A stretch of DNA of 63,596 bases, counting the filler, from Candidatus Aminicenantales bacterium (lineage in GTDB: Bacteria; Acidobacteriota; Aminicenantia; Aminicenantales; UBA4085), in assembly GCA_049515535.1 (NCBI GenBank). It is 4 parts of 4 records of this genome, joined end to end, with 100 filler letters (N's around TTAATTAATTAA, not from the genome) between each part and the next. Parts side by side here need not be neighbours in the genome. Positions count along the whole stretch, not along the records: positions 1 to 26,929 come from JBEKTZ010000018.1; 3 more parts are not named here. One strand, 5' to 3'. A program made the position numbers and the translations under genes. Positions within the stretch are counted from its first letter, which is position 1; each line of letters begins with the position of its first letter. The notes beneath the pieces were generated by a model, which saw only the letters and a program-made list of their open reading frames with translations, ran no database searches and was not told the origin of the DNA. Below, in pieces: positions 1-27,029 of this stretch.

Positions 1-103
1 CCCCCTCAGGGGGTCAGCGAAGCGCCGAGGGGGGAGCTTGACTCCCCCCTGGAAGTATCCCGTCTCAAGGAGATATTGGATAAGGAACTTGAGAGACGGG
101 ATA

Positions 104-3100
104 CTAGGTTCGGGCGAATCGGAAACGGACCGTGATTTTCGTCCCCTTTTTTCCCTCGCTCGCGATCTCGATCGATCCCTGATGGTCCTCGATGATTTTT
201 TTGGCGATGGGAAGGCCGAGTCCCGTCCCGACGTCCTTGGTCGAAAAATAAGGTTCGAAAATCCTGTCCAGGATATCCTTTTCGATGCCCGCGCCCGTGT
301 CTTCGATCTCGACGACCAGCAGACCCGGCCGGCCGGCCAGACGCACTCCGATTTCCCCCTTGCCGCGGATGGATTCGATGGCGTTGGTCAGAATGTTGCG
401 CAGGGCGATCTTCAGCTTGGCCCGGTCGCCCTCGAACCGGAAATCAGCGCCTTCGAACGCCACCCGGATTTGGATCCGTTCCGCCAACAGCTTTCGGTAG
501 GGATCGACCGTTTCCCGGACGAGGTCGTCGAAGCCGAACGGCTCTCTCCGAATGACGGCCTCTCTTGAGATCTCCAGGAATTCCTGGGCGATCCGGCGGA
601 GATTTTCGACTTCGCTGTTGATGTAGGAAATGGACTCCTTGAGCGCGACACCGAAGTCGCTCCCCTTGTCTTCATAGACACGCAGAAGGTGTTCGGCCGA
701 AAGCTGGATCGGCGTCAACGGGTTCTTGATCTCGTGGGCGACCTTGCGGGCCATCTCGGCCCAGGCGGCCTTTTTCCCCAGGTCCGCCAATTCCTGCTGA
801 TGGTCTTTGAGGTTGGCGATCATCGCGTTGAAGCCGTCGATCAGCGTTTTCATTTCGTCCCGCGATTTATATTCGATGGCGAAATCCAGGTTGCCGAGGC
901 TGGCTTCTTTCGTTCCGGCGAGTAGCTTATGGATGGGGTTGACGATCATGGCCCCGATGCCGCGCGCGAGGACGATGACCGTGGCGACGAAAAAGATTGA
1001 AATGAAAAGGAAAAATTCGACGAGCTCCTGGGTGGCGCCGGAGATCTCCTCTTGTTCGAAAGGAAAGGGAAGCGAGATCATGAGACGGGGACCGAGCGAT
1101 GCGTAAGGGACGGTCAGGGTCTGGAACGAGAAATTGCCGATGTTCCGTTTCTGCGTGTAAAAGGGATTGTTTTCGAACTGGAGCTTGTAATAGATCTCGC
1201 CGTCGATCAGCTCCGGAAAGAGGCCCTGATCGAAAAATTCGCTCCGGCTCGATGAGACGAGCCGTCCTTCCCGGTACAGGTTGACGTCGTTCGCGATCGC
1301 CGTGCTGATCCAGAGCATGAGGTCTTCGGGAGGCGTTTGGGCCTCGACTTTGTCCTGGCGCTGGATGTAGTAAATATAATCGTCCATCACGTTGCGGGCC
1401 ATACTGGCGTGAATTTCCGCTTTTTCGATGAATTGCTGGGTGAAGATGCGGGTGAAAAAGCTCCGGGAGAAAAACGTGAACAGAAAGAGCGGGACGAACG
1501 ACACCGCGATGAACGAGATATAGACGCGATTGGCGAATGACCAGAGAGGATGCTGGCCTTTCTTCCGGGCATGGATGAGATAAACGAGAGTGATCGGCGC
1601 CAGGAGAATCGCGACGTACAGGAAGAGAAGCTTGAAGAAATCGATGGCCTTTTGAACGAAACCCTTTTCCGGAGAGAAGAGGGCGTAGATGCGGTTTCCC
1701 GAAGGAAACGCATAGAGGCGGAACGCGCGGCCCTTGTCCGTAAACGTCGTCCAGCGGCCGCCGTCGTCGAGCGGGGAGGACAGCAGCTCGGGGGGCAGCC
1801 CCGTCGAGAGGTTGTTCGGATTGAACAGAAGTTTTCCTCTCGGATCGAAGACGGCCATCCGGATGTCGAAGGCGTTGAGCGATTGCAGCGAGTTGACGCG
1901 GAGAAGCTCGAAATAGGGGTTGGCGGAATAAAGGAACGGCAGCATGTCGTAATCGAGCGACAAATAGAAGACCGTCCGGCCGCGCTCCACGCCGTTCTCT
2001 ATCCAGTCTTTGAAGCCGAGAAGAAAGTCCTTTTCTTTGCCCATGAACGGAAGCGTCAGACGCTCGACCGTCCAATCCGGATGGGGCGAGGGGTCAATGG
2101 CGGCCCGAAAGATCTTGGGGACGTTCAACGAAAAACGGGAAAGCGTCGCCCCTTCCGCGTTCAGGATTTCCAGGCTCGAATACCAGTTGAACTTGGCCGC
2201 GAGCGTCTGCTTCCAGATGGCATGGGTCGGCTCCGGGACGCGTTCCGGGTTTTTCAAATAGGCGAGGAGGTCATGCTGTTGCTTGTCCAATTCCTGGAAG
2301 GATCGGTCGAGGATGAAGCGGGCCCAATCTTCTTGCGAGAGGATCGTGTTTTTCAAGAAGTTTTCGGTGAGGGAGCGCCCTCGCTCGGAAACGGCTTGAT
2401 GAAGGGTCCCATGGACGAAGAAGACGAGGGCCAAGGCCGTCGCCCATAGAAAAAATCGGCGAGTGGACTGGGGCCACGCTTGGGGAACGATTCCAGCCGG
2501 GCTTTTGAGGAGAGCGAAAATGAAGAGAACACATCCGGCGAGGCATAAGACGATGCTGATGTGGAGAACGAAAAATGTCCCCGAGAAGTCGAACTTGAGC
2601 AAATTCAGGCTGGCATTGAGGGCCAGGCGCGAAACGAGATTTTGAATTCCGAAAACGAGGGCGATGGAAAGGGATAAAACGAGGATCCGAACGGCCAAGA
2701 TGAAGCCAAAGGCCTTGGGAGGAACGATTTTACGTGCGTAGAACGAGAAAACAATGAACACGGCGAGCCAAGCGAGCGAGGTGAGAAAAATATCGCCCGG
2801 CGATTTGGTCAAGTTCCCCAGGGTGAAAAAACCGGCCGATGTCGGCGAGAAAAGCGGCATGGTCTGGATCGGTTCGAGCCGACTGATCGGAAAAAAGAGA
2901 AAGCGGAGCCCGGCGATGGCGGCCAGGATGGCCAGCCCGGGTCCGAGTTTTTGCTCCCGGCGAAAAGACGGCTGATGGAAAAGGAGGATCAATGCGCAAA
3001 CCAGGGCAAGGGCGAAAAAGACGCAGAAGCCTGAAAGGAAAAATTCTTTTTTAGACGACAAGGATGCCGCCAGGGTCAGAGAACGGAGCGAAACCGTCGC

Positions 3101-3910
3101 GAGGATCTGGTTGCGTTCGTTACGAAAGGGAAAAAAGAGCGACAGGACGTCTCCCTGCAGGCGAGGCTGGCCGATGTACTCGTCCTGATGGCGGGCGAGG
3201 TTTTTGTCGACCATGGAGACATCGTCCCGGAAATCCCAGTACTCGATGGAGCAATTCTTTCTCAGGCGGGGGCTGATGAAATGATAGTTATCGAGATACG
3301 GCGATTTGAACTCGGGAATGAAGGCCAGAAGGCGATAGAGGACGAGAAGAGTCTGGTCGTTCACCCAGTGAAGAGACACGAGATAAGATGACGCTTTGTA
3401 CTTGATGAGCAGCGTCTGTCCGAACTCCTGGAGAACGGAATCCGAAATTCCCCCGGGGACCGCCGCCTCCAAGTTTACGACATTGCCCAGCCAGAGCGTC
3501 AAACGTCCATCTCCGGTGTATGCGGCGATGCCCTCGACCTCCGGATCGAGGCCGAGGCCTTTGAACAGCTTGAACCGGGTTTCCGTCGTCTCCGGCCAGG
3601 ACTGTCCGGCCGCCCGGCGAAGCTTCTGGCTCTGATCTTTAAGGACGTCCGCGAATTCTTTTTTGATGGACTGAGCTTGGTCCCTGAGGGTGCCGAGGCT
3701 TTTGCCGTAATAATCGGCGGTCATGCGGCCGGGGAGAATAAAGGACAAAGCCAGCATCATGAGGGCCAATCCGGCCGCGCCGGCCAAAAACAGGGGCCAG
3801 ATCCCGTTTTTTCGGCGGCCGGGGCCCCGGGCTTTGCCTGGGGGTCCATTTCCGCCGTACTCGCCCGTCGATATAAGACGCGGGCGAGTATGGAGGATAC
3901 GGAAGGTCAT
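104..3910 (-). CDS. Large multi-TM sensor histidine kinase (NtrY-like; HAMP-HisKA-HATPase_c)
   Basis: 1268 aa ORF with many hydrophobic segments and a C-terminal H-box WAEMARKVAHEIKNPLTPIQL, N-box NILTNAIES, and G boxes DTGAGI and FSTKDVGTGLGL. Confidence 0.9.
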   Translation of the reverse strand: MTFRILHTRPRLISTGEYGGNGPPGKARGPGRRKNGIWPLFLAGAAGLALMMLALSFILPGRMTADYYGKSLGTLRDQAQSIKKEFADVLKDQSQKLRRAAGQSWPETTETRFKLFKGLGLDPEVEGIAAYTGDGRLTLWLGNVVNLEAAVPGGISDSVLQEFGQTLLIKYKASSYLVSLHWVNDQTLLVLYRLLAFIPEFKSPYLDNYHFISPRLRKNCSIEYWDFRDDVSMVDKNLARHQDEYIGQPRLQGDVLSLFFPFRNERNQILATVSLRSLTLAASLSSKKEFFLSGFCVFFALALVCALILLFHQPSFRREQKLGPGLAILAAIAGLRFLFFPISRLEPIQTMPLFSPTSAGFFTLGNLTKSPGDIFLTSLAWLAVFIVFSFYARKIVPPKAFGFILAVRILVLSLSIALVFGIQNLVSRLALNASLNLLKFDFSGTFFVLHISIVLCLAGCVLFIFALLKSPAGIVPQAWPQSTRRFFLWATALALVFFVHGTLHQAVSERGRSLTENFLKNTILSQEDWARFILDRSFQELDKQQHDLLAYLKNPERVPEPTHAIWKQTLAAKFNWYSSLEILNAEGATLSRFSLNVPKIFRAAIDPSPHPDWTVERLTLPFMGKEKDFLLGFKDWIENGVERGRTVFYLSLDYDMLPFLYSANPYFELLRVNSLQSLNAFDIRMAVFDPRGKLLFNPNNLSTGLPPELLSSPLDDGGRWTTFTDKGRAFRLYAFPSGNRIYALFSPEKGFVQKAIDFFKLLFLYVAILLAPITLVYLIHARKKGQHPLWSFANRVYISFIAVSFVPLFLFTFFSRSFFTRIFTQQFIEKAEIHASMARNVMDDYIYYIQRQDKVEAQTPPEDLMLWISTAIANDVNLYREGRLVSSSRSEFFDQGLFPELIDGEIYYKLQFENNPFYTQKRNIGNFSFQTLTVPYASLGPRLMISLPFPFEQEEISGATQELVEFFLFISIFFVATVIVLARGIGAMIVNPIHKLLAGTKEASLGNLDFAIEYKSRDEMKTLIDGFNAMIANLKDHQQELADLGKKAAWAEMARKVAHEIKNPLTPIQLSAEHLLRVYEDKGSDFGVALKESISYINSEVENLRRIAQEFLEISREAVIRREPFGFDDLVRETVDPYRKLLAERIQIRVAFEGADFRFEGDRAKLKIALRNILTNAIESIRGKGEIGVRLAGRPGLLVVEIEDTGAGIEKDILDRIFEPYFSTKDVGTGLGLPIAKKIIEDHQGSIEIASEGKKGTKITVRFRFART

Positions 3911-4335
3911 AATTTTTCAGCCTTGATTTCAGTGATCTTCCAGAAATCTCCGGCCCGCGACGCTCCCGGCGACCTCCGGATATAAAAAAAGATCAGGAAC
4001 ACGAATTGACTTTTATTCTTGTTCAGAAACGACCAGCGGGCCTTGAAAATAAAATGGTCCTTATCGGGCGAGCTTTGACCGTTCGACTCCGGGAAGAACT
4101 CAAAGGTCGTATAGGTCGAAAAGATATTCTGGAACAGAAAGAAAGATTGCTCGCGGGTGAGCTGATCCGAAAAGGATATGGGTTCCGGCAGCGAGATATT
4201 GATCGGCTGTTCCGCGGAAAAGAGCGGATAGAAGAGCCGGGGATTATTCTGAAGAAACGCTTTCTCGATATTCTCCGTTAAGGACGAACTCAAGGACAGA
4301 AAAAGAGAAAGGAGAACAAGTCCAAGCTGGGACAC
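3907..4335 (-). CDS. Hypothetical secreted protein
   Basis: 142 aa ORF with signal-like N-terminus; stop overlaps the kinase start by 4 bp (ATGA). Confidence 0.65.
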   Translation of the reverse strand: MSQLGLVLLSLFLSLSSSLTENIEKAFLQNNPRLFYPLFSAEQPINISLPEPISFSDQLTREQSFFLFQNIFSTYTTFEFFPESNGQSSPDKDHFIFKARWSFLNKNKSQFVFLIFFYIRRSPGASRAGDFWKITEIKAEKL

Positions 4336-4355
4336 TCAACATCCGAAGGAAGAGA

Positions 4356-4583
4356 TCAGGCTTTGTGTTCCTTGGTTTCCTCTTCGAGCTTCTTGGTTCG
4401 CGCCGCGTCCTTGATGCTGCTGATGCCCGCGATCAGGGCAATCAGGCCTCCGAAAAAAAGAACGGGGGGGATGAAACCGAGGACCACGCCTTTAAAAAAG
4501 TGCCACCAGAATTTCGGCAGGGCGAGGACGATTCCTCCGATCATTGCGATTAAACCGGCGATGATGGCTAGATACTTGCCCAT
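4356..4583 (-). CDS. Small 2-TM membrane protein
   Basis: 75 aa, two hydrophobic helices, GGAGG RBS upstream. Confidence 0.7.
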   Translation of the reverse strand: MGKYLAIIAGLIAMIGGIVLALPKFWWHFFKGVVLGFIPPVLFFGGLIALIAGISSIKDAARTKKLEEETKEHKA

Positions 4584-4724
4584 GAATGACCTCCCTTCCA
4601 GGTTTATTCTTTTACGCTCACTATTATAACAAAACGGACTTTGGGAAGCAAGCGCCGCTCGTCAACGACCCTCCGATTGCGTTACAATGGTCCGCGTCAC
4701 AATGTCCCTTGAAAAGAGGAGAAC

Positions 4725-15834: not shown

Positions 15835-17694
15835 ATGATCGTCGTCGACAATCTCAGCAAGCGATACGGAGAACAGGCCCTCTTCGAGAACATCAGTTTT
15901 AAGATCAACCGCAAGGAGCGAATCGGCCTGGTCGGGCGAAACGGCCACGGCAAGACGACGCTTTTCCGGCTGATCGTCGGCCTTGAAGAGCCGGATTCAG
16001 GCTCCATCGCCGTTCCCCGGAACTACCGGATCGGCTATGTCGAACAGCAGCTGGATTTCGCCGAAACCTCGGTCTTCAAAGAGGCCCAGCGCGGCCTTCC
16101 TCCGGATGCGCACGATCAACTCTGGCGCGTCGAAAAGATTTTGTCCGGGCTCGGCTTCAGGCCGAAAGATTTCGACCTGCACCCGGCCGAACTTTCCGGC
16201 GGTTTCCAGGTCCGACTGAACCTGACCAAGATCCTCCTCGCGGATTACAATATGCTCCTTCTCGACGAGCCGAACAACTATCTCGACATCACGTCCATCC
16301 GCTGGCTCGAACGGTTTCTCCTGAACTGGCCGGGCGAGCTCCTTTTGGTCACCCACGACCGGAGTTTCATGGACAAGGTCGTCACGCACACGCTGGCCAT
16401 CCATCGGCGGAAGGTCAAAAAGATCGAGGGCGATACGTCCAAGCTCTACGACCAGATCGCCATGGAGGAAGAAACCTACGAGAAAACTCGAATCAACGAC
16501 GAGCGGAAGCGGAAAGAGATCCAGGGATTCATCGACAGGTTCCACGCCAGCGCCCAGCTGACCGGGCTCGTCGAGTCGCGGAAAAAGACCCTGGCCAAGA
16601 TGGTGAAGAAAGAGAAGCTCGAGAAGCTCAAGTCCCTCGAGTTCGGGTTCGCCTACAAACCGTTCCACGGCAAGTATATGATGAGCGTGGACGAACTGTC
16701 GTTCGGTTACGAGCCGGACCGGCTGTTGATCCGGGATTTCGGCATCACCATCGGAGCCAAGGATCGCGTCTTCGTCATTGGGAAGAACGGCCGCGGGAAA
16801 ACGACGTTGCTCAAACTCCTGGCCGGGGTCCTGGAGCCCGGCGCTGGAAAAATCTCAAGCCCGTTGGCCGTGGCCCCCGGATATTTCGAGCAAACCAACG
16901 TCCAAAGCCTGAGCGACAACAACACGGTGCTCGAGGAGATCGGCTCGGCGGCGGCCGACATCGAGCCCTCTAAGGCCCGCTATCTCAGCGGCCTCATGAT
17001 GTTCGAAGGGAACAACGCCCTCAAAAAGATCAGTGTTCTTTCCGGCGGCGAAAAAAGCCGGGTCCTGCTTGGGAAGCTGATCGCCACGCCGCTCAACCTT
17101 CTCCTCCTTGACGAGCCGACCAACCACCTGGACATGGAATCCAGCGACGCCCTGCTGGCGGCCATCGATAACTTCGACGGCGCTGTGGTCATGGTGACGC
17201 ACAACGAGATGTTCCTCGACGCGCTGGCGGAGCGATTGATCGTCTTCCAGGACACTGGCATCTCGATGTTCGAAGGCGGCTACGAGCGTTTTCTGGAGAA
17301 AGTCGGATGGGAGGGAGAGGACGCTCGCCCGCAGAAAAAAACCGGCAGGAAGACGATCGAGACAAGCCTGGAAAAACTCGGCAAGAAAGAGCTGCGCAAG
17401 GTCCGGACCGATCTCCTCGTTGAGCGCGCGGCCGTTCTCAAGCCGCTGGAGAATAAGATGCGGGAGCTCGAGAAGGCCCTGGAGGGAACCGAGAACGAAA
17501 CCAACCGCTTGACCCAGGAGATCGTCGAGGCCTCACGGGCCGGGGAGGGCGCCCGCATCGGAGAAATGTCGAAGACCGTCCATCAGCTGCGCAAGATGAT
17601 CGATGTCTATCTCGAGGATCTCGAGCCGCTGCTCCAGGAATTCGAAGAGAAAAAAGCCGAATACGACCGAAGGCTGGCCGAAATTCCTGAATAG
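15835..17694 (+). CDS. ABC-F family ATPase
   Basis: Two ABC domains (GRNGHGKTT, GKNGRGKTT, LSGG, LLLDEP), no TM segments, C-terminal coiled coil. Confidence 0.92.
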   Translation: MIVVDNLSKRYGEQALFENISFKINRKERIGLVGRNGHGKTTLFRLIVGLEEPDSGSIAVPRNYRIGYVEQQLDFAETSVFKEAQRGLPPDAHDQLWRVEKILSGLGFRPKDFDLHPAELSGGFQVRLNLTKILLADYNMLLLDEPNNYLDITSIRWLERFLLNWPGELLLVTHDRSFMDKVVTHTLAIHRRKVKKIEGDTSKLYDQIAMEEETYEKTRINDERKRKEIQGFIDRFHASAQLTGLVESRKKTLAKMVKKEKLEKLKSLEFGFAYKPFHGKYMMSVDELSFGYEPDRLLIRDFGITIGAKDRVFVIGKNGRGKTTLLKLLAGVLEPGAGKISSPLAVAPGYFEQTNVQSLSDNNTVLEEIGSAAADIEPSKARYLSGLMMFEGNNALKKISVLSGGEKSRVLLGKLIATPLNLLLLDEPTNHLDMESSDALLAAIDNFDGAVVMVTHNEMFLDALAERLIVFQDTGISMFEGGYERFLEKVGWEGEDARPQKKTGRKTIETSLEKLGKKELRKVRTDLLVERAAVLKPLENKMRELEKALEGTENETNRLTQEIVEASRAGEGARIGEMSKTVHQLRKMIDVYLEDLEPLLQEFEEKKAEYDRRLAEIPE

Positions 17695-17723
17695 CGGGCC
17701 GTCCGGAGTCCGCTCCGGCGGGT

Positions 17724-17915
17724 CTATTTCTTCTTGTCGCCGTACCAGACGCCGGCGGCCATGTATTCTTTCGGCGAGAATTCCTCGATCCAGATCCGGA
17801 TCGTTTCGAGCGGCGCTCCGATCGACTCGTTGACGGCTTTCGTGACGGCGGTCAGGAGCGCTTTTTTCTGTTCGTCGGTCCGCCCTTCTAGCAAATGGAT
17901 TTCGATGAGTGGCAT
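17724..17915 (-). CDS. 4-oxalocrotonate tautomerase family protein
   Basis: MPLIEIHLLEGRTDEQK with catalytic Pro1; GGAG RBS. Confidence 0.9.
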   Translation of the reverse strand: MPLIEIHLLEGRTDEQKKALLTAVTKAVNESIGAPLETIRIWIEEFSPKEYMAAGVWYGDKKK

Positions 17916-18208
17916 GGGCATCTCCTTTGAAACAATCCTCCGCCGGGTGGAGGCGGAGGGATCATTGTAACATCCCGCGGCATCCGGGCAAAGTTCCCTT
18001 TAATTTGCGGATGGCGAATTGGAAGGTGTTGTTCATAGCGCTCGGCAGGTTTGTTGAGGAGGGACTTGGCGGATTTTGCACGGAACTTGCAATTGCCGAA
18101 AGTGAACGCCTGAAAGTGCTAACAGCCAAGGCTAACTGCATTGAAAGCGCAACAGAGCAAAGTCGGCTGCAACCCGGTATCAGCCCGCCGCCTTGCCAAT
18201 TGCCTAGC

Positions 18209-19441
18209 CTATGCCTTATACAGGTGTTTGGGTTCCCGAACATTTCTCAATTGTATTCCCAGTTGTGCCTCTAGCCGATCAATGCCAGCATGCTTCAGTT
18301 CAGCTTCAATTGTTGTCGTCATGAGCAGCTTGTTGTTGCTCTTGACACCAAATCGCGCTATTCTCGTAAGCGCGTGTAAAGCTGCCTTATCAATAGTTCC
18401 GAGTATGAAATTCAATCCCGGCTCTGACAAGTCTGGTGCAGGTCCCGTCTTCATCTCCAAGGCGCCTCTGTAAGCAGGGCTATCTAGGGTGTCTGCCTTG
18501 TCGGGGGGTTCATCGCTATCCGACACAAGAATAGTGGAGGTTTGAAGCATGGGTTTTGTCATCATGCTGAAACCGTCGTAAGTTAATCTGCCAGTATGAT
18601 GCCGTGCATGCAGGCAGTTCTCCGCTATCAACAATACCAACCTGGTAAGCTTTATCAGCCCTTCTCCAACTATCTTTCTATCAGAAAGGTTTTGAGGAAG
18701 TAGAGGAAGTAAGCGAGGGCTGGTCTTGGAGTGAAAAATCGCGCACCGAATATATACATATATTTGCTTGTAGATATCCGCAACGACATCTGATGTTGTT
18801 GGTGCGAAGACTCCTATTAGGGGAATCCTGCTGTTGGCTATTCTCAGAGCGCGCCTAAGCCACCGGCCTTCACTTTCGGACTTGAGTCTTGGGGCAACAT
18901 ATTCCAGGAGCGATTCAAATGCCAAGTACATGTTGCGAAAAGCATCAAAGAGGTCATCAGTCACCTGTGAAAGGCGGAAATATCTGAAGCTTTCGTGGTA
19001 GATGACTTGTGGTGGGGCTGTCCGTGGGACGACATTCCCGTCTTTATCGGTTTCAATAATTTCTATCGGGCCTCCTACTGTAACCGACCAATTGAAGACT
19101 GAGACGACTCTCAATACTTGGCCGGATGGCTCGCGCCACCAGATAAGATTCTCGTCCAGAGCATTGCGAGTAGAAAGATATGCTTTGCCTTGCACTGATA
19201 GAAGGTCGAGGGCCTGTTGAACTACCTCGTGCGACTCATTGAAGGCATCTGTTGCAGTGGTTGCGCCTTTGATGCGAGCAATGACATATGGATTATTCTT
19301 GAGGACTTCAACTTCTCGATCAGGCGAAATAGCAATGATTTCGTTTACATCACACTTCTGCGCGAGCAGATATGCTGCCCCGGAGTCGAAAGGGGAGTCT
19401 TTATCTGCGATTTGAGCGTTTGCTAGAGTTGCCATCATCAA
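18209..19441 (-). CDS. Cassette 8: hypothetical protein, HEPN/MauJ-ApeA-like C-terminal domain
   Basis: 410 aa; YLAFESLLE helix followed by an Rx4H motif (RCAIFH). Confidence 0.55.
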   Translation of the reverse strand: MMMATLANAQIADKDSPFDSGAAYLLAQKCDVNEIIAISPDREVEVLKNNPYVIARIKGATTATDAFNESHEVVQQALDLLSVQGKAYLSTRNALDENLIWWREPSGQVLRVVSVFNWSVTVGGPIEIIETDKDGNVVPRTAPPQVIYHESFRYFRLSQVTDDLFDAFRNMYLAFESLLEYVAPRLKSESEGRWLRRALRIANSRIPLIGVFAPTTSDVVADIYKQIYVYIRCAIFHSKTSPRLLPLLPQNLSDRKIVGEGLIKLTRLVLLIAENCLHARHHTGRLTYDGFSMMTKPMLQTSTILVSDSDEPPDKADTLDSPAYRGALEMKTGPAPDLSEPGLNFILGTIDKAALHALTRIARFGVKSNNKLLMTTTIEAELKHAGIDRLEAQLGIQLRNVREPKHLYKA

Positions 19442-19469
19442 TTCGCTTTTGCTGTAATACTTGGTTGAC

Positions 19470-19504
19470 CGCTAAGGCGGGATAGCCTCCAGGGCTTGTT
19501 AGCT
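19470..19504 (-). other. Internally deleted attC (35 bp)
   Basis: Minus strand AGCTAAC AAGCCCTGGAGGCTATCCCGC CTTAGCG: R'' intact and contains the upstream stop, R' has G>C, stem is missing. Confidence 0.6.
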
Positions 19505-19879
19505 GTTACTTTCATTGTCGGCCTCAACGCTGCCGCTCTGTTCGCGATGGGGCTCAAGATCCTTGAGCAGAGCCTTTGCATCCGCGGCATCTTCGCGATC
19601 AACCTGGAACTCGGCTGGGCCTCCAAAGTGGGTGCTGCCCTTGCCGAAAAGGTTTTGTGCCGCTTCGTTTCGCACAAGGAAGCGTGTCCCCGCTGACTGC
19701 AGCAGCGACTTCGCCAGCGCGATGCGTCCCGCGTCGGCGCACTTGAACACGGTCACAAGCTCGGCTGGTCGCGACCAACGCGGCTTGGCTGGTTTCGATT
19801 CGTCCGCCAAGGCGACCAAACAGTCGGAACACTGCGTGAACCCTGGCCGATACTCCACTCCGCACTTTGGACAAATCAT
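19499..19879 (-). CDS. Cassette 7: zinc-ribbon + DUF2007 (PII-like) protein
   Basis: CPKC..Y..GF..CSDC...L followed by ALAKSLLQSAG..F.V and V..EDAA.AKALL. Confidence 0.75.
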   Translation of the reverse strand: MICPKCGVEYRPGFTQCSDCLVALADESKPAKPRWSRPAELVTVFKCADAGRIALAKSLLQSAGTRFLVRNEAAQNLFGKGSTHFGGPAEFQVDREDAADAKALLKDLEPHREQSGSVEADNESNS

Positions 19880-19904
19880 CTTGCTCCTCCTACCTGATGG
19901 TCAC

Positions 19905-20029
19905 AGCTAACGCCTCCGCATCAGCCGCCGCCGGGCCAGCAAGATATATCACATCATACAGCATCTTCGGGGGCAAAGTGTGCCCGAAAAACCGGCTGGT
20001 AGGCGGTCGGCTGTATGCGGTTGTTAGCC
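19905..20029 (-). other. attC site (125 bp)
   Basis: Minus strand GGCTAAC AACCGCATACAGCCGAC...CGGCTGATGCGGAGGC GTTAGCT. Confidence 0.9.
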
Positions 20030-20076
20030 CGCCGGTGATTAGCCAGTACCTTTGTTTGCAAAAACGTATCTCGTTA

Positions 20077-21030
20077 CTAATCAAGCCTGCCGGAATACCG
20101 GTATATCAGATAGTATCCTTCCCTATTTTCATTCAACAGATCAACTATCCACTTTTCTGCATTCGAATAATAGACTTGATGTTGTGCTTTACCGGCTGTC
20201 CTTCGATTGATTTCGGTCACAACTTCAGGAGTTGTGATGAAGAAACCTTGCTTTAAATTATACCGAGACATTACCAGAGCAATATCTTTGGATATAGGAA
20301 AGCTTATCTCTACGTAAGGTTTGTTAATATCTGGAGAAAAAACAGGATCATCACTTGTGATGAAACCATACCTTTCCGGGGCAATGAAGAATTGCCACGT
20401 CATACTGGAGAGTATTTTAGGTACTTCTAAGGGAGACTTCATCACCAAACTTTTGAGTGGTATTTCAGTATTAATAGGCACGTTCTCTTTGTAATACTCT
20501 AACTCTTGCTCCCGTTCGCTGCGAAGTTTCGAAATCCTGGCTAATCGAGTTACATCGGCTTTATCTGTTCTGGCTTCCTCAAAATCAAGCCATTGAACCA
20601 TCCAAGAAGAGATAGACTGAAAAACATTAGGCCAATTCTTCTCAAACCTCTCTTTTCGTTTTGGGACACGTTTATACATGAGATACACATATGAAGCGAA
20701 AGTTTCTTTCTCGTGATCGGTTATCATCTCCTGCCGCCGGAGTTTTTTAAAGATGGGATCAGCAGGTCTCTCTAATTTCTCAAGCTCATTTTCGTATGTG
20801 TCGAAATCAATTGTGCCGTCCCTTTTCATGAACGCATAATGGTCTTTTTCCGCGCCTACTAGCTTGATTGTGCGTCTGTACGGGTTATGGTGTCTTTTAC
20901 GTCCAGGATTATAAGATTTGCCTCTTTCATATACCCAAATAAAAGGGCTTTTTTCTGCTTCGATGAATCCTTTTTGGTAAAGTTTCGGGAGAAAATGATG
21001 GTTATGTTTAAGCTGTGATTCGTTTTGCAT
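20077..21030 (-). CDS. Cassette 6: DUF4238 domain protein
   Basis: N-terminal HHFLPKLYQKGF and FITSDDPV motifs; AT-rich. Confidence 0.8.
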   Translation of the reverse strand: MQNESQLKHNHHFLPKLYQKGFIEAEKSPFIWVYERGKSYNPGRKRHHNPYRRTIKLVGAEKDHYAFMKRDGTIDFDTYENELEKLERPADPIFKKLRRQEMITDHEKETFASYVYLMYKRVPKRKERFEKNWPNVFQSISSWMVQWLDFEEARTDKADVTRLARISKLRSEREQELEYYKENVPINTEIPLKSLVMKSPLEVPKILSSMTWQFFIAPERYGFITSDDPVFSPDINKPYVEISFPISKDIALVMSRYNLKQGFFITTPEVVTEINRRTAGKAQHQVYYSNAEKWIVDLLNENREGYYLIYRYSGRLD

Positions 21031-21061
21031 CAGAGAAACGCATACCTTTACCGACTCAGCG

Positions 21062-21308
21062 AGCTAACAATGTTTATATGGATCCATATAAATATCCAAA
21101 GATGGCATCAAGTGCCGTATAAGATGCCGGAGAATCCGGCATTCTTTCAGGTCTATATGCCATGTCTCTAAATATCCCCCCGTTAACACAAATGTAGATT
21201 ATCACTCTGATTCGAAAGATGTCAATTTTTTATGATTTGGGAGGGGCGGAAGACCGCGACTGAAGGCTCTGAAAATGGGCAAGATTCTTAAATGGCTTGG
21301 CAAAGTTC
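21062..21308 (-). promoter_or_regulatory. Internal copy of attI-like site plus Pc-like promoter module
   Basis: Minus strand TTGACA-N16-GATAAT, then ...CCATATAAAC ATT GTTAGCT; highly similar to 26719-26928. Confidence 0.75.
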
Positions 21309-21313
21309 TTTTT

Positions 21314-21358
21314 AGTCAGCGGACGCCGAAGGCGGTCCGCTGGATTGAAGGGTTAGAC
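21314..21358 (-). other. Truncated attC (R'', L'' and hairpin present; R' replaced)
   Basis: Minus strand GTCTAAC CCTTCAATCCAGCGGACCGCCTTCGGCGTCCGCTGACT, then switches to the attI/Pc module. Confidence 0.75.
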
Positions 21359-21440
21359 TTCGGGGACTCTGAGGAAGTTCCTCGATTTCTGGCTCTTGCA
21401 CACAACCATGGCGCTTTACGAAGGAAATCTCTCGAGAACA

Positions 21441-22274
21441 TTACAGCACCGCATATAGAATGTTAGTTCGCTTCGGTACTGGGAGGTCTCCTGGGCGCTG
21501 CCGAAAGTACCGCGCCTCAGCCTCTGCGGTTGAAAGGAACTCCACTTTGGAAAAGCCGGTGCAACGCAGTTTTGCTTCGAGCGCATCAGGCTCGAAGTAA
21601 CTCACCCAAGGTTCGCCAACGCTTGCGGCGCGCTGAGCAAGTGGCGAAGGAGAGTCGTCGGGCGGCGGCGCGAATGTAAGCACTATCTCGCTGCCCGCCG
21701 GAAACATTGCGACGGACCGGAGCACAGCATCAATGGCGTCTTCTTTGAGGTACATCGTCACACCCAGCCAGGAGAAGAAGGTCGGCTCGTCCATCGAGAC
21801 ATGATACCTAAGCAGGCCATCATGCAACGATTCGTGTTCAAAGTCGATGTTGGCGAAGACTGCGTTCTCAGGCATTGCGAAGCCCGCTGCGGCAAGATGG
21901 GAACGTTTCAAAGCTTGTGTCTCTGGATGGTCGACTTCGAGAATCTTCAATGTCTGCGCCCATGGAGGTTGCCTGAGCGCAAAGGTATCGAAGCCTGCCC
22001 CGAGGATGACATACTGCGTAATTCCGCGAAGAACCGCAACGGCGAGCCGGTCCTCGGCGAACCGCGAACGCAGAACTACATGAGCGCGCAATACAAGACT
22101 TTCGGGAGTTCGATAGTGATCCGCCGTATCTTTGATCCGCTGTAAGGCAACCGGTCCAAGCAGTGACAATGCAACCGGATCATCAAGGATCCGCGGCTGT
22201 GTTTCAAACAACTGATGCGCGGCCCGCAGGTATGCGGTTCCTAGCGCCGTGCGACTCGCTTTATGATCGGAGAT
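21441..22274 (-). CDS. Cassette 5: class I SAM-dependent methyltransferase (LCM/TIGR00027 family); apparent ATC start
   Basis: ASRTALGTAYLRAAH, QYVILGAGFDT, EVDHP and WLGVTMYL motifs; the conserved N-terminus lies upstream of the ORF-track start. Confidence 0.85.
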   Translation of the reverse strand: MSDHKASRTALGTAYLRAAHQLFETQPRILDDPVALSLLGPVALQRIKDTADHYRTPESLVLRAHVVLRSRFAEDRLAVAVLRGITQYVILGAGFDTFALRQPPWAQTLKILEVDHPETQALKRSHLAAAGFAMPENAVFANIDFEHESLHDGLLRYHVSMDEPTFFSWLGVTMYLKEDAIDAVLRSVAMFPAGSEIVLTFAPPPDDSPSPLAQRAASVGEPWVSYFEPDALEAKLRCTGFSKVEFLSTAEAEARYFRQRPGDLPVPKRTNILYAVL

Positions 22275-22306
22275 CGTGTGAAGCTCCCATCAGGTTTTGG
22301 ACTGAG

Positions 22307-22366
22307 GTCTAACGTTCGGCATCAGCGGCGGCGCGCAGCGCCGTCCGCTGCATGCCGTTGTTAGGC
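22307..22366 (-). other. attC site (60 bp)
   Basis: Minus strand GCCTAAC AACGGCATGCAGCGGACGGCGCTGCGCGCCGCCGCTGATGCCGAAC GTTAGAC. Confidence 0.93.
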
Positions 22367-22376
22367 GAAGTACATT

Positions 22377-23369
22377 CTAGCGTCCCAGCTCAACTTCTCT
22401 TCCATCCTTTAGTGTCACTCTACCTTTCCCTCGCAGATAGACGTAGCCGACACCTGGCACCATGACAAAAGTGAGCCGGTTCGATTTGTCATCCTCGCTA
22501 ATGAAGGTGTAGATGTCGCCTTTCATGTCGAGTTCAACACGGCCCTTGAACCGGTGGAGGCAAAAGTTCCCAAAGGCGAAAGGCTGATTGTTTACAATAG
22601 GCATTGCATCACCGGGGAATTCCATCTGAACGTTTAACGAGCCTTTACCGGTCTGGACCAGTGTCATGCTGCCAGGCAACCCACCCTGGGGCATGATTTC
22701 TTTGATAACAAATCTCTCTCCCACTCCCTTGTTTCGTATCTCTTGAACGAGGGCCTGCTCTGACTTCGGCAGGTCGGACTCGGCCACCTTATCTTTCTCT
22801 TGCAGAGTTCCGGTGTTTTGAGGGCTTTCTTGTGCGGGTCCTTCGTTCCGCTTCTCTGTGCCGTCGAGGAGTTCAAGACCTTGATTGCCAATTGTGGCAC
22901 CGCCATTGCGATACTGCTGTCCAAGAAACGAGGTCCATTGGCCAGTTTCGAATCGTAGCTTGGACCCGACGCCGATGATTCCGCCCTCGATGTCGATCTG
23001 GTCACCAGGCTTCTCCATCACCAGAAGGTACAGTTCGGTCCCGATTCTGATGGGCAGTTTGTTATCTAGGGACGCATCTGTCGAATACGTCAGCATTTGG
23101 TTGCCCGGCCGTGCCATGAAATCCCGGCCGATGGAGAGGGTTCCGGTCATATTGTTTCTAAAGGTCTTACCTCTAACTTCCGCCGTGTCTACCACTTGAT
23201 GAATGAGGCAGAGTGTCTTGGCAGTGTTCCCTAAGATTTGAGCCTCCGTCAGAGCCGTGGGGTTGTCCCCTGGTCGCATGTCTGTTGCGCTCAAGCCTTG
23301 TGCCATCGCATTGCCGGAGCAGATTACAGTGAATGCGACGATTGCCGTCCAACGTAATCTCGTAGTCAT
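22377..23369 (-). CDS. Cassette 4: secreted hypothetical protein
   Basis: 330 aa; signal peptide ending AMA; strong AGGAGG RBS. Confidence 0.75.
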   Translation of the reverse strand: MTTRLRWTAIVAFTVICSGNAMAQGLSATDMRPGDNPTALTEAQILGNTAKTLCLIHQVVDTAEVRGKTFRNNMTGTLSIGRDFMARPGNQMLTYSTDASLDNKLPIRIGTELYLLVMEKPGDQIDIEGGIIGVGSKLRFETGQWTSFLGQQYRNGGATIGNQGLELLDGTEKRNEGPAQESPQNTGTLQEKDKVAESDLPKSEQALVQEIRNKGVGERFVIKEIMPQGGLPGSMTLVQTGKGSLNVQMEFPGDAMPIVNNQPFAFGNFCLHRFKGRVELDMKGDIYTFISEDDKSNRLTFVMVPGVGYVYLRGKGRVTLKDGREVELGR

Positions 23370-23385
23370 GTTGCTTCCTCCTTTC

Positions 23386-23442
23386 GCCTAACGTATGCCT
23401 CAGCGGTGGCGGCACGCCATCCGCTGCAGGCAATGGTTAGCG
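23386..23442 (-). other. attC site (57 bp)
   Basis: Minus strand CGCTAAC CATTGCCTGCAGCGGATGGCGTGCCGCCACCGCTGAGGCATAC GTTAGGC. Confidence 0.92.
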
Positions 23443-23444
23443 AT

Positions 23445-24023
23445 TCATCTTACCCAGACGCAGAACGGTTCCTTCATTCGTGCGACCGCAACAATTTCAC
23501 GATAACGAGACTTCATTCTTTGTGGGTGAGTTCGTGATTCTCTTCGGACAGCACAGACGGTCGAGCAACCGAGTATAAACTTGAGGGGAGCATGAATGTC
23601 TGAATATTCACTGTACTCCCAAAGGTCCAGCACGCCACTTACATTTGCAGTTAGCGTGTCGAACACGAGAGCGGTAGCGCCAGTATCCAATTTGCCCGTT
23701 ACGGGACTGAGACCGACAGGAAGCCGATGCCACAGTGCCCTATCATGGGAGTATTCCTTGGCTGCCTCTGCCTCTATCGTTGGACGAGCGCCACCTTTGG
23801 TTGCTGGCTCAATGAATATCATGTATCCCGGAGATGTCGAGCACATCTTCTGAACATGAGCAGGCCGAGCTTTTGGTGACCGGACAAGCCAGAAGGTTTT
23901 CCCTGTTTGTTCTATGTCTGATATCTTTCTGTCGAAGATGAAATTGGCTCCTTCACCGGCGTGTTCTCCCATCACGCTGATCACGCACTGCGAACTGGCC
24001 AATGCTTCTTTTAGTTCGGTCAT
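23445..24023 (-). CDS. Cassette 3: hypothetical protein
   Basis: 192 aa ORF that fills the space between two attC sites. Confidence 0.75.
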   Translation of the reverse strand: MTELKEALASSQCVISVMGEHAGEGANFIFDRKISDIEQTGKTFWLVRSPKARPAHVQKMCSTSPGYMIFIEPATKGGARPTIEAEAAKEYSHDRALWHRLPVGLSPVTGKLDTGATALVFDTLTANVSGVLDLWEYSEYSDIHAPLKFILGCSTVCAVRRESRTHPQRMKSRYREIVAVARMKEPFCVWVR

Positions 24024-24037
24024 GCTTCTCTCTTGGT

Positions 24038-24095
24038 CGCTAACGTTGCGGCTCAGTGGCCGGCGAAGCCGGTCCGTTGAAGCCGGTGGTTAGGC
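24038..24095 (-). other. attC site (58 bp)
   Basis: Minus strand GCCTAAC CACCGGCTTCAACGGACCGGCTTCGCCGGCCACTGAGCCGCAAC GTTAGCG; upstream gene stop lies within R''. Confidence 0.92.
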
Positions 24096-24938
24096 CTGTT
24101 CGTCGAGTTGTTTGAGCGATTTACCACCCTCAGTTTTCCACACGATAAGTCCGTTTGCGCTCCCGCCGTGTATGACAGCCGCCGCCGCAGATGGGCTGGA
24201 GAACTCCGCATCCCTGGTGAAGACCAAGAAGCCGTCCTTTTCGGTGAGCACGCCCTCGGCGATGAGTTGTTTGCGCTGGGCCATGACATAGGGATAGTTC
24301 TCGGCAGATGGCCGCTCCTCCAAGACGGCGGTAGAGCCCTGGAATATGACGAAACCGTTCGCTGCACGTTGGCCTCGCCCCTTGGCGCCCTTGATACGGC
24401 AGTAGAGCACGCCCCCGGGCTGAGCTTTCGCAGCGGGTTGAGCGATCGGCGTAAGGATATCGGAACCGAGGACGGGGAGCAGCTGCCGAATTCGGGCCAG
24501 GAATACCTCCATATCCTCACGGTCTGATTCGGGAAGCTTTGAGCCGCCAGCCTGATTCTGTTCGAGTGTGAACCTGTTGATCTGAGCGGCTTCGGCGAGG
24601 AGCCGGTTCTCGAGATATCTCACATGGGCCTTGGTCAAGTTCTCGTCCTTGCTGACGAAGACGATGGCCGAAACCCAGAACTCCTTTGTCTTGTGTTGCT
24701 TGAGTCGCTCGCGAATGATCTCCGCCTCGCCAATGTAAGCGCGCGGTGCGTTGGTAAGAGGGTCGTTGCCAATGAGTATGTAGACGCCGGCCTTGTCGAG
24801 TTCCTCGCGAGCCAGAAGCTCATCCAGTTCAGTGCGGGGAGCGGCGACAGCCTTTCCGGTCCAGTTAGAGATCTCGGCAGTGCGTAGGCTTTTCGCGTCT
24901 CCGCGTGGAAGGAAGAGTCTGATAGTTGCCGATGTCAT
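24090..24938 (-). CDS. Cassette 2: GIY-YIG nuclease + DUF4357
   Basis: GVYILIG...AYIGEAE...RLKQH; C-terminal FSSPSAAAAVIHGGSANGLIVWK. Confidence 0.88.
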   Translation of the reverse strand: MTSATIRLFLPRGDAKSLRTAEISNWTGKAVAAPRTELDELLAREELDKAGVYILIGNDPLTNAPRAYIGEAEIIRERLKQHKTKEFWVSAIVFVSKDENLTKAHVRYLENRLLAEAAQINRFTLEQNQAGGSKLPESDREDMEVFLARIRQLLPVLGSDILTPIAQPAAKAQPGGVLYCRIKGAKGRGQRAANGFVIFQGSTAVLEERPSAENYPYVMAQRKQLIAEGVLTEKDGFLVFTRDAEFSSPSAAAAVIHGGSANGLIVWKTEGGKSLKQLDEQA

Positions 24939-24951
24939 GTGCGCTCCATAG

Positions 24952-25022
24952 GCCTAACGATCGCGTTGTGCCTCCGAGTGCCCGTTGCTGGCACGAGGTA
25001 AGGCACCAAGGCGTTGTTGGCA
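24952..25022 (-). other. attC site (71 bp)
   Basis: Minus strand TGCCAAC AACGCCTTGGTGCC...GGCACAACGCGATC GTTAGGC. Confidence 0.85.
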
Positions 25023-25024
25023 CG

Positions 25025-26695
25025 TCATTCTCTTTCAGCGAGTGACCAAACTGAACTTGGTCCCCGGCCCGAACGCTTTGCATACGACGCAGACTTCAGA
25101 AACTGACTCGTCTGGGATGTCTGCTTGAACCCAAGATGAGCCTTGATGTCCGCGTTACTGGCGCTTCCGTGCCGAGCCAAGTACTTGTATAATTCAACAT
25201 GCTTCGAACTCGCGGATGTGACACGGAATGCCTTCGTAACCTTGAACAGGTTAGACCATGCTGGCTTGATCCGAACAAAGACACCCGAACGAGTGCCGCA
25301 GAGTTCCACACAGTCCAGCTTCGCGACGGCTGTCTCGACTGCTTGCCATGGCGCATTTGTAGCTTTGGCAAGTTGCTTGGTCAATGTCTGAACTGAAGCT
25401 GAGCCGGTCTCATATACCGAATTGAGGATCAACAGCTCAGGGATGCCGTAGTTGGCGCCTTGGTCCGTAGCAAGAACGAAGATGCCCGGTCGGAAGTACT
25501 CCCCTTGCATCGCGACTTCCATGGTCTCTCCCTTCTCAACGAATGAGGGGAAAGCCCGGCCATACCGGAGTGAGTTGACGCTCATACGGAGCACGCCCAT
25601 GCCAGCCCTGTCAACTAGGTGGTACTCCATAAGCATTCTGGCCAGCGCCTTGTTGCGGTGTCTGGGTTCGTGCTTGGCTATGTTGTCTGATGTGACGCCA
25701 CCGTAAAACGACCCCGGGCTTGTGATGACCATGCGATCCCCAGTGAAATTCACCGAAACCATTCCATCCGCCGAATAATCGCGGTGAACCAATGCATTCA
25801 GAAAGGCTTCATGGAACGCGATTCTGTCCAGAAGTTGAATCGAATACTGCCTTCCCTCATAATCCAGCGGTAGGATACGGTTGCACGCATCGAAGTGGGC
25901 CTTGCCTCGTTTGATCGTCTCCCATAGGCAGTCCTGCCATACGTCATTTATCTCCAACTTGCCCGCCGCTGTTTTCCGACTAAATCTGTACTCGTAGATT
26001 CCCAATAGGCGTGAGATCTCATGCACGTTGCCGAGAAACAGGAGACCGCTCTTCGTAATGACACCGTTGTGGGTGGCCCCGATGGCCTCCAAGAAACCTG
26101 TTCTCTCGATCTCTGGAAGATTGCGCCGTTTGGCGAAATCAACGAAAGCTTCTTCGACAGCGATAGCGTTTAGTGCGATGGAAGGATTCGCATCCAGAAG
26201 TTCGGAGCTCCAATCGTAATCTTGCAGACTTTTGACGGCGTGCTCAATCTCGTCTGGCATCATAGGACGGCTGGATTTGCCGTCGCGGATACAGACCTTG
26301 CCACTTGTCGTTGCAACAAGAGAGTCGCGACGGCGGGGAATGTTGATGAGGAGATAGTCTTTCCCCCCGTGCTTGATCTCGGTCAGTTCAAGATCAAGCG
26401 ATGGTCTCAGTTTTCCACGCAGTCGCTCGCGAGTGGTGTGTAGGTCCACTCGCACAAAGCCTGCAAGTTGGTCATGCCACATCCCGTGCGTGACATTGCT
26501 GCTGTCCCGGACGCCAACCAGGACAATGCCGCCTTTGTGGTTTGCGAGAGCTGATATTTCCTCCGCGAGATCTTTCGCGTTGTGGAGTGCATCTTCGGAT
26601 GAGTAATGCTTGAATTCAACGGTGTCTGACTCAAGGGCTTCGCTCGGTTCCTGTCCTAGTCTGTCAAGCAGTTTCGTACACTGCGCTGAGTTCAT
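25025..26695 (-). CDS. Cassette 1: Schlafen/AlbA_2 + HATPase_c_4 + wHTH protein
   Basis: ESDTVEFK, SALANHKGG.VLVGVRD, EAFLNALVHRDY, RN..LA and DRAGMGV motifs. Confidence 0.85.
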   Translation of the reverse strand: MNSAQCTKLLDRLGQEPSEALESDTVEFKHYSSEDALHNAKDLAEEISALANHKGGIVLVGVRDSSNVTHGMWHDQLAGFVRVDLHTTRERLRGKLRPSLDLELTEIKHGGKDYLLINIPRRRDSLVATTSGKVCIRDGKSSRPMMPDEIEHAVKSLQDYDWSSELLDANPSIALNAIAVEEAFVDFAKRRNLPEIERTGFLEAIGATHNGVITKSGLLFLGNVHEISRLLGIYEYRFSRKTAAGKLEINDVWQDCLWETIKRGKAHFDACNRILPLDYEGRQYSIQLLDRIAFHEAFLNALVHRDYSADGMVSVNFTGDRMVITSPGSFYGGVTSDNIAKHEPRHRNKALARMLMEYHLVDRAGMGVLRMSVNSLRYGRAFPSFVEKGETMEVAMQGEYFRPGIFVLATDQGANYGIPELLILNSVYETGSASVQTLTKQLAKATNAPWQAVETAVAKLDCVELCGTRSGVFVRIKPAWSNLFKVTKAFRVTSASSKHVELYKYLARHGSASNADIKAHLGFKQTSQTSQFLKSASYAKRSGRGPSSVWSLAERE

Positions 26696-26718
26696 TGTGT
26701 TTCCCCATGCTTTCTGAG

Positions 26719-26929
26719 TGCTAACAATGTTTATATGGATCCATATAAAAACCCAAAGATGGCATCAAGTGCCGCATAAGATGCCGGAGAATCCGGCATC
26801 CTTTAACACAAATGCAGATTATCACTCTGATTCGAAAGATGTCAATTTTTTATAATTCGGGAGGGGCGAAAGACCGTGAATGAAGGCTCTGAAAATGGAT
26901 AAGATTTTTAAATGGCTTGGCAAAGTTCC
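26719..26929 (-). promoter_or_regulatory. attI-like site plus Pc-like promoter at the head of the array
   Basis: Minus strand TTGACATCTTTCGAATCAGAGTGATAAT, then TTTATATGGATCCATATAAAC ATT GTTAGCA; L/R spacing resembles attI1 (TAAAAC AAA GTT). Confidence 0.78.
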
Positions 26930-27029
26930 NNNNNNNNNNNNNNNNNNNNNNNNNNNNNNNNNNNNNNNNNNNNTTAATTAATTAANNNNNNNNNNNNNNN
27001 NNNNNNNNNNNNNNNNNNNNNNNNNNNNN
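26930..27029. other. Artificial contig spacer (N-TTAATTAATTAA-N)
   Basis: N runs flanking a six-frame-stop linker; same at 52042-52161 and 62010-62109. Confidence 0.95.

Follow-up and report, generated by a model that had tools for sequence, protein, structure and literature searches.

Integrons have been described as immobile platforms with one attI that move cargo (PMC12444791, PMC3607928). Closest to the element analyzed here are the delta-attI-type cassettes, which, as presented in PMC12901181, lie inside an array and are bounded downstream by attI sequence instead of an attC. They contain up to 244 bp of attI2 and in one instance a complete attI1, and IntI1 excises them and inserts the one tested. 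The same source reports that attC-gene-partial-attI2 cassettes are excised by IntI1 in vivo, that an attI1-gene-partial-attI1 cassette is inserted by IntI1, and that attI1-aadB-attI1 is excised by IntI1 at 100% (PMC12901181). A second related group are the reverse or inverted-integrase integrons of Treponema and others, in which, according to PMC3607928, PMC4889954, PMC6557892, and PMC7691350, intI lies on the cassette strand and points towards an attI that is located behind the intI stop codon and has L, R, and two direct-repeat-like boxes. They are described with one attI each (PMC3607928) and with Pc between intI and attI (PMC7691350).

Gene-less promoter cassettes, as portrayed in PMC11014356 and PMC6557892, are short, restart transcription inside the array, end in an attC, and are not derived from a platform. 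CALIN elements and integrons with inactivated intI contain cassettes without a nearby intact intI, which was lost by deletion (PMC4889954, PMC12444791). Group IIC-attC introns and IS1111-attC elements, as described in PMC3001079, interrupt attC sites and can supply a promoter. In the open papers searched, no platform was described as moving in the manner of a cassette.

The window, i.e. the whole stretch of DNA analyzed, comprises 63,596 nucleotides, filler included, from the 3.45-Mb genome of a Candidatus Aminicenantales bacterium (GCA_049515535.1, here G000), and its first contig, C18, carries a cassette array on the minus strand. An earlier note had described 21062-21308 as a diverged copy of 26719-26928 with about 37 extra bp. 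The repeat was recovered: in the two copies, B and A, 196 of 210 paired positions are identical, interrupted by one 37-nt gap, and the match has a blastn E of about 1e-66 within the genome. The extra sequence has to be read the other way round, because, judged by sequence comparison, the difference is a deletion in copy A, which lacks most of copy B's intI stub sequence (the same 37 nt), and not an insertion in copy B. Both copies have the 3′ end CATATAA-ACATT-GTTAGC, with R boxes at 21068-21062 and 26725-26719. The features of the array and of both copies are as follows.

26930..27029, no strand: artificial N/linker spacer, the DNA beyond being another, unrelated contig (window layout, genome match)
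26719..26929, minus strand: copy A with upstream region, predicted promoter 26845-26816, intI start GTG 26809-26807, and attI with crossover after G 26725 (repeat alignment; attI HMM, E 9.5e-9)
24958..26724, minus strand: cassette 1 behind attI A, 556-aa Schlafen/AlbA_2 + HATPase_c_4 protein, attC 25022-24952 (ORF, Pfam, attC finder)
24044..24957, minus strand: cassette 2, 282-aa DUF4357 protein, attC 24095-24038 (ORF, Pfam, attC finder)
23392..24043, minus strand: cassette 3, 192-aa protein without Pfam match, attC 23442-23386 (ORF, attC finder, fold)
22313..23391, minus strand: cassette 4, 330-aa protein without Pfam match, attC 22366-22307 (ORF, attC finder, fold)
21359..22312, minus strand: body of cassette 5, SAM-dependent methyltransferase (LCM / TIGR00027), bounded downstream by attI B and not by a whole attC (profile match)
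21314..21358, minus strand: left three quarters of the cassette 5 attC, R'' 21358-21352, L'' 21346-21339, L' 21320-21314, no spacer and no R'
21315..21321, minus strand: 7-bp microhomology CGCTGAC between the attC L' box and the end of the unit leader, putative deletion junction (alignment; also in locus L159 and run X3)
21226..21313, minus strand: region upstream of the promoter in copy B, homologous to the full-length platform units L192 and L174 (alignment to L192)
21196..21225, minus strand: putative intI promoter of copy B, -35 TTGACA 21225-21220, -10 GATAAT (spacer 16) or TAATCT 21201-21196 (spacer 18) (consensus scan, comparison)
21156..21189, minus strand: two intI stubs of copy B, GTG 21189-21187 plus about 8 codons, fused to about 10 nt near codon 284 (alignment)
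21062..21155, minus strand: attI of copy B, direct-repeat-like box 21123-21115, palindrome 21091-21074, L box 21080-21074, R box 21068-21062 (HMM, E 3.5e-8)
19911..21067, minus strand: first cassette behind attI B, 317-aa DUF4238 protein, attC 20029-19905 (ORF, Pfam, attC finder)
18124..19910, minus strand: two more cassettes, 126-aa DUF2007-like and 410-aa MauJ-like protein (both below the Pfam cut-off), degenerate attC (ORF, Pfam)
17987..18123, minus strand: decayed leader copy (about 75% identical) and array end, running from G|TTAGCAC into the promoter of the host tautomerase gene (alignment)

The junction at which the cassette 5 attC enters copy B is biological and not an assembly artefact, because a separate assembly of run X1 (which may be the source reads) has a contig that spans it with 0 differences, a contig of run X3 spans it with 13 differences, and locus L159 shows the same half-attC/module fusion.

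Both copies contain TTGACA-N16-GATAAT pointing into the cassettes, as the earlier note had seen, on the minus strand at 21225-21198 (B) and 26845-26818 (A). These are the two best (11/12) of nine promoter-like sites in 17700-26929, a region for which a shuffle control gave 7.5 sites of 9/12 or better. The assignment as a classical Pc failed, since the predicted promoter corresponds to the intI promoter of an integron of the same orientation, with the intI start 6 nt past the -10 region. Of 44 distinct promoter copies, 37 have an ATG or GTG at this distance downstream of the -10 hexamer (TAnnnT); in full platforms this codon is the start of the 344-aa IntI. TAnnnT at spacer 18 is retained in all 44 copies and the spacer-16 hexamer lacks its last T in three; most copies were collected via a pattern fixing GATAATC, the informative positions being those three variants and the final T. 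The -10 region TAATCT (spacer 18) thus appears to fit the variants better than GATAAT (spacer 16), and we infer a leaderless intI promoter with a -10 region TAnnnT. Only because intI is deleted could this putative promoter serve the cassettes. It was the sole promoter found in the module by the consensus scan, most of the intI-attI spacer being deleted, and after the intI deletion about 90-160 nt separate it from the attI crossover in the two window copies. Longer intI stubs with the same junction occur in G008, L178, L173, and L167. No integron integrase above the TIGR02249 cut-off was found in G000 (94% complete, 32 contigs), which contains fragments only. A frame of 41 codons that opens at the intI start and closes in the R box (21189-21064, minus strand) was rejected as a conserved feature, being present in just 5 of 34 modules. 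A LexA-type motif was absent from the modules and also from the upstream regions of lexA and recA. Just before the lexA start on contig C20 of G000 (L273) there is a 12-bp direct repeat, a possible operator, of which no copy was seen by eye in the modules.

For the 3′ part of the module we used an attI HMM trained solely on 28 sites behind full-length intI genes of other genomes. Such a conserved site lies 164-186 nt past the intI stop codon in 28 of 31 loci examined and consists of an upstream box, a palindrome with L, five nucleotides, and then G|TT; right after the GTT the sequences diverge. The model finds both window copies, which bears out the attI-type L/R ending claimed for them. In copy B the crossover follows G 21068 and the L box lies inside the palindrome; the 3′ end resembles the attI1 core as given in PMC12901181. 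By homology, this part of the module is an attI complete with its upstream boxes, and the whole module an internally deleted platform of a reverse integron, composed of intI promoter, intI stubs, and complete attI. The further genomic copies that had been suspected exist: G000 has six attI sites at E<1e-5, both window copies included, and the next HMM match has an E of 0.5. In comparisons of the module with phages there was no match, and with plasmids the attC arm alone was matched.

In relatives, a larger unit starts at an attC crossover and runs leader-promoter-(intI)-attI, with the module as its 3′ portion. We collected ten such units, two in G000, two in one G008 contig, and six among 38 metagenome loci, leaving out L175, L185, and L188 (identical to G000 in the parts compared) and L167 and L168 (which begin in the same repeat). 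Each unit is preceded by a different attC-like sequence at the crossover position, two of these being called by our own finder and the others by eye, and the junctions read G|TTAGC (5), G|TTTGC (1), A|TTAGC (1), G|TTCAGG (2), and G|TCAGG (1). Mean identity is at least 0.93 in the 60 nt after the anchor motif and at most 0.33 from about 30 nt upstream outwards. Related downstream cassettes were found in 0 of 45 pairs of units and related upstream ones in 1 of 45. The leader of copy A, which lies on contig C4 past the end of the window's contig, is about 120 nt long, starts with TTAGCAC, and includes a 25-codon fragment with weak similarity (E 0.01) to the N-terminal end of a hypothetical protein of 364 aa. 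For the two readings given in the earlier note, fused platforms with loss of intI or a portable attI-promoter unit, this means that intI loss and portability stand, with units at two separate G000 loci (C1 and C4/C18); replacement of half an attC as the norm does not agree with the ten other units, where a whole attC and a leader of about 120 nt precede the module.

Within L192 and L174 the unit includes an intact IntI frame (486 and 484 bits, TIGR02249 cut-off 265), so that the adjacency of module and intI which the note proposed looking for in relatives was found; the rest of the ten units carry intI remnants of varied length. Full-length homologues above the cut-off that point towards attI and cassettes are present in L192, L174, L166, and L056, and G042 and G009 contain full platforms with promoter, intI, attI, and cassettes all on one strand. 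L166 and G042 have a full platform behind one common attC and a toxin-antitoxin-like pair (labelled by eye). Among 61 related, mostly incomplete assemblies, 3 contain an over-cut-off integron integrase, 14 an attI site, and 7 at least three sites, and over-cut-off IntI occurs in just one of these seven. The whole-genome search used a sequence-only model that included both window copies, whose own scores in it are therefore not independent. Of 80 loci with a related IntI, 23 have a same-strand attC downstream of intI; outside the lineage, a same-strand attC-like site within 1 kb upstream of intI was found at 1 of 80 loci, and weakly, and no full platform was found in mid-array.

In the closed genome G047 there are nine attI sites at E<=0.01, and a single array of about 30 kb holds seven of these. 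In this genome a second leader family forms five units, all starting with G|TTAGG, 308-976 nt long and with differing intI deletions; among their 10 pairs, none has related downstream neighbours and one has related upstream neighbours. L043 (G047:C1 2520936) and L192 share the same cassette after attI despite different leader families, i.e. cassettes are common across platforms. More short attI-terminated segments were noticed at L050 ~7930-7780, G047:C1 ~2532980-2532790, and L057 ~6830-6750, where an attC is followed by a partial attI within 60-130 nt or lies almost directly before the promoter. Many other copies of the module stand at the head of arrays in backbone DNA, and their left ends vary. 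One backbone position, beside an ECF sigma factor-like gene (by eye), carries a head platform in several genomes (L003, L053, L016, L164, L181, L183, L184), with differing intI deletions and attI types.

Like delta-attI cassettes, cassette 5 plus module (22312-21068), the ten leader units, and the five G047 units all extend from an upstream att crossover to a downstream attI-derived site. As described in PMC12901181, delta-attI cassettes differ in carrying a resistance gene and mostly 14-18 nt of attI fused at R'', whereas here the attI is complete and is fused at L' in copy B and located behind a leader in the others. The unit further differs by its intI promoter, whole or deleted intI, and conserved leaders, and by up to seven recurrences in one chromosomal array. 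By analogy, it may work like the delta-attI class without being a typical member. The module's family agrees with reverse integrons in orientation and attI; the window contains only intI stubs, and the intact intI of a reverse integron has no counterpart in G000. In contrast to reverse integrons, the arrays here have many attI sites each, most of the spacer is deleted, and the intI promoter abuts attI. Compared to promoter cassettes, with their attC end and measured promoter activity, the unit ends in attI and also brings a new insertion site, its promoter being a predicted one. With five attC sites called by our own finder and no full intI, the window part of the array formally falls under CALIN, but platform remnants are repeated and interspersed in it and do not form a single decayed head. 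Before filtering, the finder made about 25 weak calls in every 150 kb of backbone, and degenerate sites escaped it.

We lean towards the reading that the platform acts like a cassette that ends in attI and is moved by IntI. This reading draws on observations, namely the composition and homology of the unit, its repeated position at an att crossover, its unrelated neighbours, and the full-length units, and it takes the segment between attC crossover and attI crossover to be an IntI substrate. At the start, a reverse-integron platform would have ended up within an array, directly after a truncated cassette gene. Everything between the upstream attC crossover and the attI crossover of that platform would then have the form of a cassette, composed of leader, promoter, intI or its remnant, and attI. 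IntI would excise it by attC x attI recombination to give a circle with attI as its only site, and this circle could insert at other attC or attI crossovers, two routes that would be indistinguishable afterwards. Every inserted attI could accept new cassettes. Later deletion of intI, often and at varying end points, would place the promoter beside attI, reading into the following cassettes. The high rate of attI x attI excision may be why arrays with several attI sites persist mainly where intact intI is missing. Copy B would be a unit that has lost its leader together with R', by which the methyltransferase cassette would have become an attI-terminated cassette. As the G000 assembly has no intact intI, the system would now be frozen or worked in trans.

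Several observations stand against movement by IntI. One leader/promoter is paired with three attI types, indicating that copies recombine, and a Y-type unit of G008 and the X-type unit L173 are sisters by promoter region (99/98), in a tree with support for just 2 of its 12 inner branches and little resolution otherwise. One upstream cassette distinguishes L174 from L192, so that ordinary turnover alone could change neighbours. Of the 10 junctions, 3 are shortened, another has an A in place of the G, and a further one is G|TTTGC. Among the matches listed, from assembled contigs only, there was no unit circle or excision joint leading from attI back to the upstream attC crossover.

A more far-reaching form of the reading we can offer only tentatively, with slightly more doubt than belief. 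In it, the reverse integrons of this lineage would be self-mobilising: their own integrase would excise the whole platform (promoter-intI-attI) as an attI-bearing circle, which would insert at attC sites in further arrays and could become the seed of new integrons in the chromosome. An array would then be a chain of sub-integrons, each with promoter and insertion point, and selection would favour repeated deletion of intI, since an active integrase would cut out all that lies between two attI sites.

The most serious alternative, which we regard as rather unlikely, is tandem fusion and amplification. One ancient fusion would have placed a platform after a truncated cassette, homologous recombination between platform repeats would have copied and moved [platform-cassettes-attC-leader] blocks, neighbours in common would have disappeared through ordinary attC x attC excision and insertion at attI, and the unit would never have been an IntI substrate. 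Mosaic leader/attI combinations, the exchange between L159 and L176, the one-cassette upstream difference between L174 and L192, cassettes duplicated almost identically in the G047 array (1098 and 607 nt), and the single related upstream pair in G047 all speak for this alternative, and the G|TT boundary is expected here too, the leader being a cassette start. It is harder to reconcile with the near absence of common neighbours (downstream in 0/45 and 0/10 pairs, upstream in 1/45 and 1/10), even between units 2-6 kb apart in one array. Moreover, the G047 duplications of more than 250 nt never span a whole unit with both flanks, and units about 85-95% alike over short stretches would be poor substrates for homologous recombination. 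Homologous recombination with turnover and movement by IntI may both be acting.

A second alternative concerns the copy B junction only. The cassette 5 attC is intact up to L' and then enters the module, as reported in the earlier note: R'', L'', and L' are present, R' is absent, and in the bottom strand the L arm folds and R'' stays unpaired, whereas full folding is seen for three neighbouring attC sites. Over 42 nt, the left arm of the cassette 5 site shows 95% identity to the attC of aacA34, and the latter continues into the GTT core where the cassette 5 attC enters the module. In 7 of the 10 units, CGCTGAC followed by the upstream region stands at the leader end. Copy B therewith probably lost its leader and the R' upstream of it by deletion between two CGCTGAC repeats, an event that would yield exactly its structure. 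The methyltransferase cassette was found in none of the others among 339 genomes of the class (E<=1e-30), nor was the pre-deletion state. Alternatively, IntI itself could have made the junction by aberrant recombination at the attC L' box, so that methyltransferase gene and module would be a primary attI-terminated cassette; this would be compatible with the platform moving as a cassette. The position of the junction within L', an integrase-binding box, fits this proposal, and aberrant L-box x R'' recombination has been proposed in PMC12901181 as the origin of delta-attI1. We consider it improbable, since the crossover lies away from the GTT/AAC triplet and since the presence of CGCTGAC at the matching place in the leaders allows a simple deletion to explain the junction. 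L159 shares its upstream part with copy B and 754 nt downstream with L176, so that its different first cassette is no proof that attI B was used.

That the module is the end of an attC-targeting IS (IS1111-attC) or of a group IIC-attC intron with an outward promoter is barely credible: both kinds insert in attC and the introns give downstream cassettes internal promoters, but as described in PMC3001079 they have an enzyme of their own, lie antisense, and are unrelated to intI, whereas here a scan of 17500-27000 gave no Rfam match at E<=1, the module has no ORF as large as a transposase or reverse transcriptase, no ribozyme domain, and no transposase, the attC does not resume past it, and homology of all its parts to intI flanks and stubs refutes this identity.

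The repeat suggests that the supposedly fixed integron platform has itself been copied and moved in these bacteria. If true, a platform acting as its own cassette would be a transposon-free route for integrons to multiply and spread, would remove the limit of expression to the first cassettes, and would give many integrase-less arrays one origin. The full-length units with an intact IntI frame (L192, L174) make the prediction directly testable. As described in PMC4889954, IntegronFinder detects attI by exact match for classes 1-3 only, so that an internal attI of such kind is invisible to standard annotation. If the recombination alternative were right, the locus would still be an unusual multi-attI array, mainly a picture of decay.

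The array as a whole extends beyond the window. C18 ends inside copy A and overlaps contig C4 of G000 by 127 nt, and this overlap shows more cassettes and a head platform beyond, so that copy A is internal and not the primary platform. Via C4, the order is TonB_C gene, head platform, DUF4185 cassette, methyltransferase cassette, two-gene cassette, attC, and leader, followed by copy A, five cassettes, copy B, three cassettes, decayed leader, and tautomerase gene. The head platform on C4, the third platform of the array, consists of promoter, intI with internal deletion, and attI. In 6 of 9 loci examined in relatives (8 listed), the TonB_C (TonB-type) gene stands next to the tautomerase gene, and the whole array is therefore one inserted locus. 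Its left end corresponds to the 3′ part of the unit, starting partway through the unit's upstream region (G000:C4 ~3935-3185), and its right end to the unit's leader; the two parts do not overlap and stand in permuted order. Head platform and terminal leader might thus have been left by an integrated permuted circle, which this one case, with a remnant about 75% identical, no more than suggests.

The C4-C18 join may skip a piece. A gap is possible there because in run X1 the leader region is covered about twice as deeply as its flanks (67 versus about 31) and because the 11.6-kb contig L168 begins in the same repeat, that of copy A. The unique part of L168 is absent from G000, and its positions 1-4593 contain two more modules and, after an attC, a type I restriction-modification-like gene (by eye). 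L168 is possibly the missing middle of the window's array, between C4 and C18.

Further observations concern the cargo and surroundings of the array. The Schlafen/AlbA_2 + HATPase_c_4 protein of cassette 1 (25025-26695, minus strand) has a possible defence function. Between the TonB_C gene and the head promoter there is a long inverted repeat with an AT-rich centre (REP-/MITE-like; G000:C4 ~4030-3942, L001). The two-gene cassette (G000:C4 931-327, L001) has promoter-like hexamers of its own; its first gene, by eye a RelE/HigB-type toxin gene without Pfam match, has a premature stop at codon 67, and its second gene is HTH antitoxin-like.
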